From: Escherichia coli O157:H7
GTDB taxonomy: Bacteria; Pseudomonadota; Gammaproteobacteria; Enterobacterales; Enterobacteriaceae
Assembly: GCF_013167455.1 (NCBI RefSeq)
Contig: NZ_CP038328.1
Length of the DNA: 64,000 bases
Direction: 5' to 3' (one strand)
How positions within the stretch are numbered: the first letter of the stretch is position 1; each line of letters begins with the position of its first letter. Positions 33,001 through 36,000 of the stretch are shown here, in pieces. Made by a program: the position numbers.

Positions 33001-36000
33001 CTCCTGCTCCTGTTCCTGTTCTTGGCTTCGAAGCCCCTTAAAAGCCCCTTCGAAGCCCCTTACCGAATTTCGGCTATTATTCCGCCTCACATCCAGATGG
33101 AAATCCGTTTTATATCTGTCGTAAAACACTGACAGAAAAGCGTTTTCAGGTAATGATGCATACTCATTCCTGACACCTGCACAACGGTTATCGCCAGGCT
33201 TCAACGTTTCCCCAACCTGCCAGGCTGCCATTTCATGGACCCAGACCATCTCTGCATCATGGTCATAGCTACAAAAACCAGCTTCAACAGCCCTTTTAAG
33301 CCCCTTTGAAGCCCCTTCCAGACCAAGCCCGGTTTCATGAGCAAGGTATAAAACTGGCAGGTAATACAAACCCAGCATATTTGCGTGAGGGGATGTCATC
33401 AGGTAAAAAGCAACAACTTGCGCTTCTGCACCCGCCTTTCTAAGTTCTCTCCCCGTTTCTCCCAGCCAGAATCGCGGAGAAACTTTTGCGTAATCACGCA
33501 TGGCTACCTCATCTGGTGCCGAACCTTCCTCCGGATATAATCTGTGGTTCCCAATCGACAGAACCAGAGGAGGTTCGACATGTATTTTTTGAAAAGCCTT
33601 TATCAGGCTCATGTATTAAATGTTGCAGCAACAAACCGCTGGTGTAACAGCCCCGAAATGCTCCCGGATTACAGAGCCTGGCTGCGCGCCGAAACATACC
33701 TTCGTCTCGACATATTGATTAGCGAACTTCAAAAAGAGACTGCATCCATTCATAACCTTCAGGGTATCGACGCTGTTCGCATTCTGGTATCGCGCCATAG
33801 TGCTCTCTCAATAATTGAAGTGCGTCATCTCTCTTTTTCTGAACTGATTTTCTTGCTTCAACCAGCTCTGGAATCAGCGAATATCCCGCCGGAAGTGATC
33901 CAATACCCACCTCATGTTGACGAGCAGTTACAAGATGTGCCATACAACCAGCGTGCTGGATTGACTCCCTGCTCAGAGGCTGAATGGGATCACTCTCTGC
34001 TGAAGAAATACCAAGATTTGTATAATCCTCAATAAGCCCGGCACACGCTTCTGCATCAGCCAGCTTTATTCTGGTTTCCTTGCGCTGTTCTCTGGCTGAC
34101 AAACGCCAGAGCAGCGCATTAGCTTTATGTATCAACCACTCTGCCAGCTCCACATCAGATAAACCGCCACGCCAGATGTGCGGACTGTTTTCGTAAACGC
34201 TCAGTGTCAATTTTTTGTCATTACTCATATTTATTACCCAATTAATGCACAGCCAGAGTGTTTCCTGCCGGGCCACCACGATTCATCTGATCGAACAGAA
34301 CGATCGCTGATGCAACGAAATCATCAATATCTTTCACCAGCCGTTCCTTCGTCTCTACCAACTCCCGAAAATAAGCGGAACTGTGGCTGCGCATTCGGGC
34401 CACCAGCGGAGGCGGCATCGCTTTTTCGATCGCTGGTAACAACGCCTGAATTTTTTTAACCGCATCAGGAGTGTCTTTCTCCACCCAGCGGAAAATTTTC
34501 TGAGTATTGCGAGCCATGGCTTCCGGATGGCTGTCGTCATACAGTTCCGGGAACGTCATTCCCAGCTCGAAATACGCTTTGGTAATTTTCGCAGCCGGTA
34601 CTTTTTCGCCGTCCGGATGCGCCCAGGCATTCATCGCCATGCGGATGTGTTCATGCTTGATTTTCATGAATCAACTCCGGCGCATTTGATGTGTTAACCT
34701 TACATCCAACAGGTAAACCGTCGGTTGGGTTAGGATAAATATCTGGGCGGATTTCATGCGGGGTAACTTCCCACTTCATTAGTTGGCATAACGGAATTAC
34801 CTGCTTTGGGGGAACGCCAAAGCTAAACCATTGCCAAACAGTCTGTTGAGCGACCCCCATATAACGACCTATTTCAGCCTGAGTGTATTTCTGCCTAATT
34901 TTTTCGCGAGTGCTATCTAGCATTTTGCCCTCCTCTAAAAACTATAAGCAAAGCCTACAATAAAAAACTGTATGCAATCAACAGTTTTTTATTGTGATGC
35001 TTTTAACAGTATTTACCTGTAAAATTGAATAATGATGAGCGCCCTAGAAGTATCTATGTACAGAATCAGCAAGCTTCTTCAGGAAACTGGATGGAGCCAG
35101 GCTGAGCTTGCCCGTAGAATTGGTGTGACACAACAAACTGTTCAACAATGGGTCAGCGGTAAGGCTACACCTAAAGCCTCAAGTTTGGATAAACTGGTTG
35201 AGGTTTCAGGGCATCCATTGCATTGGTTTTTATTGCCTCCTGAAGAGTGTGAGCAAATTTTCACCCCTGACACGATGAAAATTGGTCCTCGCCAACGCGA
35301 ACTGCTCCAAGCTTTTAGTGCGTTTCCTGAGGAAGACCAAGAAAAAATGCTTCAAGAAATCAAAGACAAGAAAAAATCAATGGAAGAAACCATTGCTAGG
35401 TGGCTGGCGGCACAAAAAAGCCGCCGGGCGTGACCACAGTACAAGAAGAGGAGTTATGCCATGGGTACAGCCCTTTCTCCGATAGTTTCAGAATTCGAAA
35501 CTACCGAACAAGAAAACAGTTACAACGAATGGTTGCGCACTAAAGTAACGTCAAGCCTTGCAGACACTCGCCCCGCAATTCCACATGACGAGGTAATGGC
35601 TGAAATGGAAAATCTTATTGCTCAAATTGCTGTAACTAACAAGAGCGAGTAATGTTACCCATTTTATGGCTACCGTCTGCTCGCGATGATTTGCGCCAGA
35701 TCATAACTTACATCGCCAAGGAGAACCCACCGGCAGCACGTAGACTAAAAATACGCATTGAAACATCGGTATTACCTCTATCTGAGCATCCGTACTTATA
35801 TCCACCAAGCGAACGGGTTTCTGGATTGAGAGAGATCGTGACCCACCCTAACTACATAATCCTGTACAGAGTAGCTGCTTCAAGCATTGAGATTGTAAGC
35901 GTGACACATTCTCGGCGACAATTTCCCTTCTCTATCTGAGTTGAACAATTTTCATACTCCCTCTTTCGAGGGATTTTTTTGCCCAAAACAACAATTAAAA

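Follow-up and report, generated by a model that had tools for sequence, protein, structure and literature searches.

We detected a paaR-paaA-parE operon, composed of a regulator, an antitoxin and a toxin gene, in the immunity region of a defective lambdoid prophage within the 64-kb window, i.e., the whole stretch of Escherichia coli O157:H7 DNA analyzed here. With a probability of about 0.9, it represents the three-component type II toxin–antitoxin (TA) operon paaR-paaA-parE in the copy carried by CP-933M/Sp4, which Hallez et al. 2010 named paaR1-paaA1-parE1. The system is already known, as it was described and tested in 2010, and the observation is correct but ordinary. The assignment is based on computed gene identities and homology, on operon anatomy and common operators, on purifying selection, and on synteny across the entire switch. 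The coordinates of the features are given in Table 1.

Table 1. Features of the paaR-paaA-parE operon and the surrounding prophage switch (window coordinates)
Feature	Coordinates	Strand	Evidence or remark
ydaT homologue, CII analogue	34242-34667	-	Pfam YdaT_toxin 38.9 bits
ydaS homologue, Cro analogue	34651-34923	-	Pfam YdaS_toxin 38.9 bits; divergent from repressor gene
YdaT operator, OM-type inverted repeat TTGATTTTCATGAATCAA	34657-34674	.	exact motif, ydaS/ydaT junction
OR-type predicted operator palindrome ACAATAAAAAACTGT-N9-ACAGTTTTTTATTGT	34957-34995	.	15-nt arms, 100% complementary
PRM-like -10 TAAAAT, inferred	35020-35025	+	+1 would fall at 35032, the first base of the repressor start codon (ATG)
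paaR-type regulator, 133 aa	35032-35433	+	HTH_3, PaaR2/DicA C-terminal homology
paaA-type antitoxin, 63 aa	35461-35652	+	ATG start; Pfam, NCBIfam and PDB matches
parE-type toxin, 95 aa	35652-35939	+	ATG start; PF05016, PDB 5cw7_B
Intrinsic terminator	35958-35980	+	TCCCTC-TTTC-GAGGGA then T7; terminator scan
OL-type predicted operator palindrome	35986-36035	.	21-nt arms, 90% complementary; 93-94% match to OR

Antitoxin and toxin genes

The sequence-only reading of this DNA had described two ORFs wedged between a CI-like repressor gene and an early ydaF-like gene. Both ORFs lie on the plus strand at the positions it gave, and the flanks are also as it claimed: the HTH repressor gene stops 27 nt upstream of the paaA ATG, and ydfA (DUF1391, ydaF-like) starts at 36217. 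The stop/start overlap it had read as ATGA is, on the other hand, a TAATG junction (GAG-TAATG-TTA, with TAATGTT at 35650-35656), in which the stop TAA of paaA and the start ATG of parE share a single A. The paaA start codon is preceded by a Shine-Dalgarno sequence, GAGGAG at 35448-35453, located 7 nt upstream.

The 63-aa protein matched the Pfam family PF21217 (PaaA2) with 68.3 bits against a cut-off of 27, and this was its sole Pfam match; neither ribbon-helix-helix (RHH), AbrB nor HTH matches were obtained at E ≤ 0.1, and no RHH/ParD family of Pfam or NCBIfam was matched. Its best solved relatives include PaaA2 in PDB entries 3zbe (E = 1.4e-20) and 5cw7, and a 56-aa alignment with PaaA2 gave 70% identity. 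Based on these matches, the protein, which is acidic (net charge -7), is a member of the PaaA2 antitoxin family and not an RHH ParD. This agrees with the proposal of the sequence-only reading that the upstream ORF encodes an acidic protein other than a canonical RHH ParD and possibly a less common antitoxin type, as the literature characterizes PaaA2 as a shortened ParD devoid of the DNA-binding domain.

The downstream ORF, for which a ParE/RelE affiliation had been suggested, passed the profile search with PF05016 (ParE_toxin; 63.5 bits, cut-off 23), and among solved structures it is closest to ParE2 from E. coli O157 (PDB 5cw7_B, E = 3e-36, residues 1-93), followed by 6x0a, 5ceg and 3kxe, all of them ParE proteins. 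Besides, it is 67% identical to ParE2 in BLASTP. The 95-aa protein is thus, as judged by homology, a ParE-family toxin. For both ORFs, the profile and structure matches greatly exceed what chance would produce. ParE2 colocalizes with the nucleoid and induces the SOS response (PMC8630535), and inhibition or binding of gyrase was not found for it, unlike for the ParE of RK2 and Vibrio. The label of gyrase poison was therefore not adopted for the 95-aa toxin.

Comparison with related loci pointed to purifying selection on both genes, with dN/dS values in the range of 0.05-0.3; dN/dS was 0.09-0.11 for paaA (against loci L002 and L003), and parE had a dN of 0.07-0.09 with saturated dS (against L002-L004).

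Regulator gene and operon layout

The regulator upstream of the TA pair carries an N-terminal Cro/CI-type HTH domain (Pfam HTH_3, 47.2 bits), whereas a peptidase S24 domain was not found in it with Pfam. Across 98 aa, its C-terminal part shares 42% identity with PaaR2 (E = 1e-20), and the final 38 residues are near-identical. The regulator as a whole aligns to the NCBIfam DicA model over its full length and has 28% identity to DicA of K-12 (E = 6e-12). The sequence-only reading was right in placing the TA pair beside a repressor gene, but it missed that the repressor is more than a neighbor, as this protein shows homology to PaaR2 in its C-terminal half. The CI-like repressor is, by this homology, the predicted third component (PaaR) of the TA operon and, at the same time, the CI analogue of the prophage. 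A 125-aa member of the repressor cluster was considered as the same repressor lacking the TA pair; this was rejected, as it is a start-site variant, i.e., the same protein from a later ATG, with the TA pair present at all its loci, and the pair is absent only by the distant dicA of Qin.

Neither a terminator nor a promoter-like site was found in the 27-nt gap between paaR and paaA with the terminator and promoter scans. At the position of the terminator that follows parE, related loci have a hairpin and T-run of another sequence. This anatomy, including the 1-nt overlap of paaA and parE, is consistent with transcription of paaR-paaA-parE as a single unit. Co-transcription has been shown for the paralogue paaR2-paaA2-parE2, whose three genes form one operon and in which PaaR2 is required for full repression (PMC8630535; PMC4803016).

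Predicted operators and promoters of the switch

Two palindromes of the same sequence, OR and OL, lie 1035 bp apart and flank the operon. OR falls within the 108-bp intergenic region between ydaS and paaR, where it would overlap a putative PR promoter on the minus strand (-35 TTGATT at 34981-34976, -10 TAGGCT at 34957-34952). OL would overlap a PL-like promoter (-35 TTGACA at 36005-36010, -10 TAGATT at 36030-36035) with a long spacer of 19 nt, reading into ydfA-ydfB-...-dicF-dicB. In CP-933P, a promoter PL933P with OL operators is repressed by both PaaR2 and YdaS (PMC8630535). Here, a single complete palindrome was recognized on each side, versus the three to four operators described for CP-933P. 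The putative promoters were placed by their position and by analogy with CP-933P, and they were not called by a simple sigma-70 scan.

The PRM-like -10 element, together with the lack of a Shine-Dalgarno sequence 5' of 35032, points to a paaR transcript that is probably leaderless with its +1 at 35032; the mRNAs of paaR2 and of lambda cI are leaderless by experiment. The leader that follows PL (36040-36216) is near-invariant, and the search for RNA structure within it gave 0 compensatory pairs and a folding energy no better than that of shuffled sequences (z = +0.48). An Rfam scan of 34000-39000 had no match within the TA operon, the only matches being the downstream DicF and a sub-threshold STnc100.

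On the other side of the repressor gene, the ydaS homologue has the position and orientation known from CP-933P, and the YdaT homologue closely resembles, along 141 aa, the YdaT encoded at the PaaR2-type locus L005. In CP-933P, YdaS and PaaR2 bind the same intergenic operators. The YdaT of CP-933P activates PRE and is non-toxic (PMC8630535; PMC9986795). Considering their Pfam names (YdaS_toxin and YdaT_toxin), ydaS and ydaT were examined as a second TA pair, which was rejected since experiments show that they are non-toxic Cro/CII-like regulators (PMC8630535; PMC9986795). The motif TTGATTN6AATCAA has a single zero-mismatch match in the 64-kb window, located at the ydaS/ydaT junction, and both the YdaT motif and its location at the ydaS end have been footprinted for CP-933P (PMC9986795). 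This operator is predicted to mark a region with a PRE-like promoter from which the repressor-TA operon would alternatively be transcribed.

Prophage assignment and genomic distribution

The integrase gene of the prophage (41078-42097) adjoins yccA. The integration site of Sp4 is yccA/tRNA-Ser (PMC8190617) and Sp4 is the same prophage as CP-933M (PMC2884950), and we thus assigned the prophage to Sp4/CP-933M, which is known to harbor a homologue of paaR2-paaA2-parE2 (PMC8630535). The prophage is clearly defective: in a near-identical O157:H7 genome, its tape-measure gene and terminase are frameshifted, its capsid gene is truncated, and IS elements have inserted.

In the genome search, the 2.2-kb region around paaR-paaA-parE was 100% identical in many O157:H7 chromosomes, with the TA pair being matched at two places per O157:H7 genome. 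Pieces of this region occur in 4394 genomes and the entire region in only 494, while the TA pair is present at an identity of at least 99% in 436 complete genomes. The module is also carried by the sequenced phage Evi, and both TA proteins fall in PHROGs families of 'unknown function' (phrog_3936 and phrog_2455), which tells solely that they recur in phages.

The regulator-antitoxin-toxin gene order, with ydaT-ydaS on one side and ydfA-dicB-exonuclease on the other, was conserved in all nine related loci read (9/9). In every one of them the gene preceding the TA pair encodes a regulator whose C-terminal domain is of the PaaR type, also where the N-terminal HTH domain and the operators are different ones, and the operators vary jointly with the HTH domain across the other immunity types.

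Comparison with known systems

The closest known system is paaR2-paaA2-parE2 of CP-933P/Sp12 in O157:H7 (Hallez 2010; Sterckx 2014, 2016; Jurenas 2021). Both systems comprise an HTH regulator, a 63-aa PaaA and a ParE of approximately 92-95 aa in identical order, occupy the same slot of the immunity region, with ydaS-ydaT facing them and ydfA-dicB-exonuclease following downstream, and share the paired OR/OL, the terminator 3' of parE and the YdaT operator at the ydaS/ydaT junction. They differ in the regulator, which here has a clear HTH_3 N-terminus in which no similarity to the N-terminal ~27 aa of PaaR2 was detected, and in the operators, which are of the ACAATAAAAAACTGT type here and of the GTTTAGT type in CP-933P. 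The TA proteins themselves differ mainly in two segments: the tail of PaaA (residues 46-63) is identical to PaaA2 at 2 of 18 positions and has a charge of -2 compared to +5 in PaaA2, while residues 1-40 of ParE are identical to ParE2 at 20 of 40 positions, with a charge of +3 compared to -4. As summarized in PMC4803016, Hallez et al. 2010 tested both O157:H7 paralogues for toxicity and for cognate-only neutralization, PaaA1 failing to neutralize ParE2 and vice versa. The inversion of charge at the PaaA tail and the N-terminal third of ParE fits this reported absence of cross-neutralization. For the paralogue, the documented phenotype consists of post-segregational killing and of the stabilization of plasmids. 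Both paralogous systems were reportedly found, in the 2010 work of Hallez and colleagues, to be expressed in the natural host.

With the canonical ParD-ParE systems of plasmid RK2, Caulobacter crescentus and Vibrio cholerae, the locus shares the ParE fold family (PF05016), a toxin-binding segment that matches the ParD C-terminal domain wrapping ParE, and the type II mode of action, in which neutralization occurs between proteins. However, its antitoxin lacks the ribbon-helix-helix, and a separate HTH protein takes over DNA binding; besides, gyrase inhibition has been shown for the RK2 and Vibrio ParE but not found for the closest relative, ParE2. The layout resembles that of lambda cI-rexA-rexB in having accessory genes, expressed in the lysogen and, here by prediction, on one transcript with the repressor gene, 3' of that gene between OR and OL, as well as divergent Cro/CII analogues and a leaderless repressor mRNA, which is shown for paaR2 and predicted here. 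In contrast to lambda, the cargo is a TA pair without sequence relation to RexA/RexB, and the PaaR-type repressor lacks the RecA-sensitive S24 peptidase domain. The DicA-DicC region of Qin in K-12 shares the full-length repressor homology and the downstream ydfA-ydfB-ydfC-dicF-dicB genes, but there dicA is followed directly by ydfA (166-bp gap) without a TA pair.

Alternative explanations

The names given to the proteins by RefSeq and NCBIfam, RelB/RelE-ParE rather than PaaA/ParE, suggest a RelBE-type module with a ribosome-dependent mRNA interferase as toxin. The 63-aa protein matched NF050103 ('RelB family antitoxin') with 92 bits, and the 95-aa protein matched TIGR02385 (RelE_StbE) with 28.4 bits, barely over its cut-off of 27.9, and had one weak PDB match labeled RelE/StbE (7etr_C, E = 0.022). 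Nevertheless, these names mirror the RelE/ParE superfamily and not an mRNase assignment, and NF050103, a model of 45 positions, spans the stretch that Pfam calls PaaA2. A RelE-type mRNase was rejected as the main reading given that the strong structural relatives are all ParE, and the close identity to a nucleoid-associated, SOS-inducing toxin also argues against it; we consider it highly improbable. In the picture implied by the sequence-only reading, the pair could be an autonomous two-gene 'moron' that is driven by a promoter of its own and has landed next to a prophage repressor to which it is unrelated. The K-12 Qin arrangement implies that the pair is dispensable for such a switch and gives it the look of an insertion, and the large excess of genomes with only pieces of the 2.2-kb region is in line with this. 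The featureless 27-nt gap, the PaaR-type C-terminal regulator preceding the pair in every related locus read, and the single operon of the paralogue, with its dependence on PaaR2 for full repression (PMC8630535; PMC4803016), make an autonomous pair very unlikely.

The module might also serve mainly in anti-phage exclusion or abortive infection, like lambda rexAB, and not in addiction or stabilization. It lies between the repressor gene and OL/PL, exactly in the slot of lambda rexA-rexB, the TA module has been said to 'replace rexA and rexB' (PMC9986795), and a sequenced phage, Evi, has it. Against this stand the phenotype documented for the paralogue and the search with PADLOC defense models, in which neither the antitoxin nor the toxin was matched and the regulator had generic HTH matches only, so that exclusion as the main role appears unlikely. 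The state of the prophage, in turn, could suggest that these are decaying, non-functional genes. Yet both ORFs are full length compared to PaaA2 and ParE2 and under purifying selection, the pair is kept near-identical in the 436 complete genomes, both paralogous systems are reportedly expressed in the natural host, and the published tests of cross-neutralization covered both of them, leaving decay hardly credible. The reading that we prefer is thus the paaR1-paaA1-parE1 operon.

Proposed mechanism and biological implications

For the paaR1-paaA1-parE1 operon, we propose a scheme in which toxicity, cognate-only neutralization, ClpXP/ClpAP dependence and regulation are taken from the literature on the system and its paralogue, while we infer the promoters, a start without leader, and that the paralogues are insulated by the charge-inverted interface of the PaaA tail and the ParE N-terminus. 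PaaR, the CI-like repressor of the prophage, would bind the matching OR and OL palindromes around the operon, repressing both the divergent promoter of the Cro/CII-like ydaS-ydaT and the leftward early promoter and controlling its own probably leaderless transcript, which would continue across paaA and parE up to the terminator. PaaA, a short, acidic and presumably largely disordered ParD-like peptide, would wrap ParE and thereby neutralize it. With ParE as the stable toxin and PaaA as the protease-labile partner, loss or silencing of the operon would deplete PaaA and allow ParE to hit the nucleoid, leading to SOS induction and killing. The release of ParE upon loss of the operon would make the immunity region addictive. 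Two further, speculative proposals we regard as doubtful. In the first, the TA pair is more than an addiction cassette: lying inside the OR-OL interval and presumably sharing a transcript with the CI-like repressor, it may tie the release of the toxin to the immunity region being lost or silenced, and so act as an anti-deletion lock or as a RexAB-like exclusion device against superinfecting phage. In the second, the charge inversion is an insulation code.

The result adds little beyond confirming that a non-canonical antitoxin can be recognized from the raw sequence. What had been pictured as an insertion of two genes is, by this analysis, an operon of three, with the prophage repressor serving by prediction also as TA regulator. 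The system is of some general interest for joining a TA pair with a bistable switch of the lambda kind in a prophage-rich pathogen, as already published for the paralogue. The single, small new observation is the inversion of charge at the presumed PaaA/ParE interface between the O157:H7 paralogues, which offers a simple and testable candidate explanation for their reported orthogonality. If true, the charge-inverted segments would let two paralogous modules coexist within one O157:H7 cell.

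Identity of the toxin and antitoxin

The two plus-strand ORFs occupy the coordinates given in the sequence-only reading, and their setting between a CI-like repressor gene and the ydaF-like gene ydfA is likewise as described there. The 95-aa downstream product, read as a ParE/RelE toxin, matches Pfam ParE_toxin at 63.5 bits (cut-off 23), and its closest solved structure is ParE2 of E. coli O157 (5cw7_B, E=3e-36, residues 1-93; 67% identity). The 63-aa upstream protein (net charge -7) had been suspected to be a less common antitoxin without an RHH domain. This guess was right, since its sole Pfam family is the PaaA2 'stability determinant' (PF21217, 68.3 bits, cut-off 27), the Pfam profile search found neither an RHH nor any further DNA-binding domain in it, and PaaA2 is a truncated ParD lacking the DNA-binding domain (PMC8251345). 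It aligns with solved PaaA2 (3zbe/5cw7) at E=1.4e-20, with 70% identity over 56 aa. Free PaaA2 is mostly disordered, and once wrapped around ParE2 it folds as helix-helix-strand, like the C-terminal domain of ParD (PMC8251345). The proposed ATGA stop/start overlap was a minor slip: the junction reads GAG-TAATG-TTA, with one base common to antitoxin stop and toxin start (TAATG), which leaves the translational coupling picture unaffected.

Coordinates of the module and of other prophage features in the window
Feature	Coordinates	Strand	Remarks
hokD, type I toxin gene	28551-28706	-	same prophage; start 28706 placed by exact string match
ECs1072 family phage-associated protein gene	33580-34035	+	about 151 aa; between replication genes and ydaT, opposite strand
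ydaS and ydaT homologues	34242-34923	-
YdaT operator TTGATTN6AATCAA	34657-34674		ydaS/ydaT junction; only exact match in the window
Putative PR			toward ydaS; -35 TTGATT, -10 TAGGCT
OR-type palindrome	34957-34995		perfect, ACAATAAAAAACTGT-N9-ACAGTTTTTTATTGT; in 108-bp ydaS-paaR intergenic region
Putative PRM, weak	35020-35025		-10 TAAAAT
HTH regulator gene	35032-35433		27 nt from antitoxin ORF
paaA-type antitoxin ORF	35461-35652	+	63 aa; Shine-Dalgarno GAGGAG 7 nt before ATG
parE-type toxin ORF	35652-35939	+	95 aa
Intrinsic terminator	35958-35973		plus T7 run; between parE and second palindrome
Second palindrome	35986-36035		virtually same sequence; just after parE, 1035 bp from first
Putative PL	36005-36035		toward ydfA; -35 TTGACA 36005-36010, -10 TAGATT 36030-36035
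Untranslated leader	36040-36216		~170 nt, putative PL to ydfA
ydfA (DUF1391)	36217-36372
dicF sRNA gene	37612-37663	+	full length; RF00039, 76.9 bits, E=2.4e-16
STnc100 match	37677-37826		sub-threshold; after DicF
dicB	37849-38037
Prophage integrase	41078-42097		adjoins yccA, at prophage end

Source prophage

The window copy is identified as the CP-933M/Sp4 paralogue, paaR1-paaA1-parE1, because its integrase lies beside yccA, the yccA/tRNA-Ser site is occupied by Sakai prophage Sp4 (PMC8190617), Sp4 is CP-933M (PMC2884950), CP-933M is described as carrying a homologue of paaR2-paaA2-parE2 (PMC8630535), two places per O157:H7 genome match the TA query, and the PaaR2-type locus L005 is clearly a different allele. 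The L005 regulator begins MQKKE, the start experimentally determined for PaaR2, and the PaaA2 region of this locus matches the PDB alignment. That O157:H7 carries two paralogous three-component paaR-paaA-parE systems is stated in PMC4803016, citing a 2010 study. The observation of a TA pair is confirmed and its interpretation supported, but the system had been described before and studied by experiment. Many E. coli O157:H7 chromosomes carry the 2.2-kb region at 100% identity.

The prophage late region (window ~1-29700) looks defective as judged from the closely related O157:H7 F6667 genome, which is base-for-base identical to the window at the same offset only from 29734 onward. In that genome the tape-measure and terminase genes are frameshifted, the major capsid gene is truncated, and ISEc8 and IS1203 have inserted. 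The far end also holds a prophage sodC and three tRNA genes (Arg, Arg, Ile).

The regulator as third component

The 133-aa repressor belongs to the TA system. It combines an N-terminal Cro/CI-type HTH (HTH_3, 47 bits) with a C-terminal part of 98 residues sharing 42% identity with PaaR2 (E=1e-20; last ~38 residues nearly alike), and the S24 peptidase domain is absent in the Pfam profile search. The order ydaT-ydaS, divergent regulator-PaaA-ParE, ydfA...dicB-exonuclease is the same in all related loci read, which come from four other E. coli chromosomes, four metagenomic contigs and phage Evi, the single matching record among 50,697 phage genomes. Across related loci, the regulator N-terminal domain, YdaS and the operators vary together, giving four immunity types, and the regulator C-terminal domain and TA pair are recognisable in all loci compared. 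In phage Evi (LR597642.1), parE is unannotated (2501-2776; tblastn 67% identity to the window toxin), next to a PaaR2-type regulator (123 aa) and a 63-aa PaaA annotated as 'hypothetical'.

Over evolutionary time, the TA pair does resemble an insertion of cargo downstream of the repressor gene, in line with the sequence-only reading: DicA of K-12 Qin aligns with the window regulator over its full length (28% identity, E=6e-12), but in Qin ydfA follows dicA after 166 bp, with no TA between.

Public gene calls for the regulator are split between ATG 35032 (133 aa) and ATG 35056 (125 aa). The longer form is favoured because the residues before M9 are conserved in the related locus L003 (LEITTYRI versus LEVSMYRI), where an ATG is absent at M9; it is also compatible with leaderless initiation 7 nt downstream of TAAAAT.

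Operators and neighbouring genes

The putative PR and PL both appear centred on the palindromes, and PRM would start at the A of the regulator ATG, giving a leaderless mRNA. A simple promoter scan called none of the three, which are therefore treated as putative. This anatomy mirrors the layout shown experimentally in CP-933P, where paaR2 is leaderless, PaaR2 and YdaS footprint over OR, and PL933P has OL operators and is repressed by both proteins (PMC8630535); the OM operator and PRE promoter of CP-933P lie at the same ydaS/ydaT junction as the YdaT operator here (PMC9986795).

The leader before ydfA hardly varies among seven loci, unlike the adjacent parE, which is synonymously saturated, and the operators, which differ; K-12 Qin shares no more than the last ~60 nt of it. 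The leader could be a cis-acting RNA, as PL in this prophage type is not followed by an N gene, or may just be where a recombining backbone begins. Compensatory pairs were absent in RNAalifold, folding energy was not better than that of shuffles (z=+0.48), and Rfam gave no match.

The ydaS and ydaT homologues are named 'Bacterial toxin YdaS/YdaT' in Pfam and 'toxin YdaT family protein' in RefSeq. A role as toxins or TA pair is rejected, as the CP-933P homologues are Cro- and CII-like regulators by experiment (PMC8630535, PMC9986795), and the names are an annotation trap adjoining a genuine TA module. DicF, whose gene precedes dicB in the operon on the PL side, and DicB are two more host-growth inhibitors downstream of the TA operon; with hokD and parE, the prophage therefore has at least four functions that kill the host or arrest its growth.

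Proposed function and maintenance

Most likely, PaaR, PaaA and ParE would be made together from PRM in the repressed ('lysogenic') state, with PaaA sequestering ParE; upon loss of the region, labile PaaA would be degraded and ParE freed. The paralogue causes post-segregational killing that depends on ClpXP/ClpAP and equals ccdAB in stabilising an unstable mini-F, and its authors propose that it serves to limit rearrangement within the immunity region. In the cell, ParE2 is found at the nucleoid and triggers the SOS response (PMC8630535); it did not bind GyrA59 and is reported not to inhibit gyrase (PMC8251345).

Nothing but the database names (in RefSeq, RelB-family antitoxin and RelE/ParE-family toxin) and a borderline TIGR02385 score points to a RelE-type mRNase. 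The 27-nt gap to the regulator and the constant association of the pair with a PaaR-type regulator contradict an autonomous two-gene moron, and a RexAB-like exclusion device, for which the position is attractive, is unsupported, with no match in a PADLOC search. Decay of the genes into remnants might be expected from the defects of the prophage (frameshifts, truncated capsid gene and IS insertions in the near-identical genome), but is contradicted by conservation and purifying selection. Purifying selection acts on both paaA and parE (dN/dS about 0.05-0.3, dS often saturated), and 436 complete genomes carry the pair at >=99% identity, so that the TA genes look maintained despite the defective prophage.

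Divergence between the O157:H7 paralogues

Divergence from PaaA2/ParE2 is concentrated in two segments, the PaaA tail and the ParE N-terminal segment, which have opposite net charges that are inverted between the paralogues.

Identity and net charge of segments in the two paralogues
Segment	Identical residues	Window copy	PaaA2/ParE2
PaaA 1-45	37/45	-5	-4
PaaA 46-63	2/18	-2	+5
ParE 1-40	20/40	+3	-4
ParE 41-92	42/52	+1	+1

In the PaaA tail, dN (1.28) exceeds dS (0.82), on 18 codons only. This pattern is consistent with an electrostatically coded PaaA/ParE interface that would insulate the paralogues from each other. The charge inversion is a small addition to a known system, and such an interface, if true, would explain the absence of cross-neutralisation between the paralogues reported in PMC4803016, citing a 2010 study.
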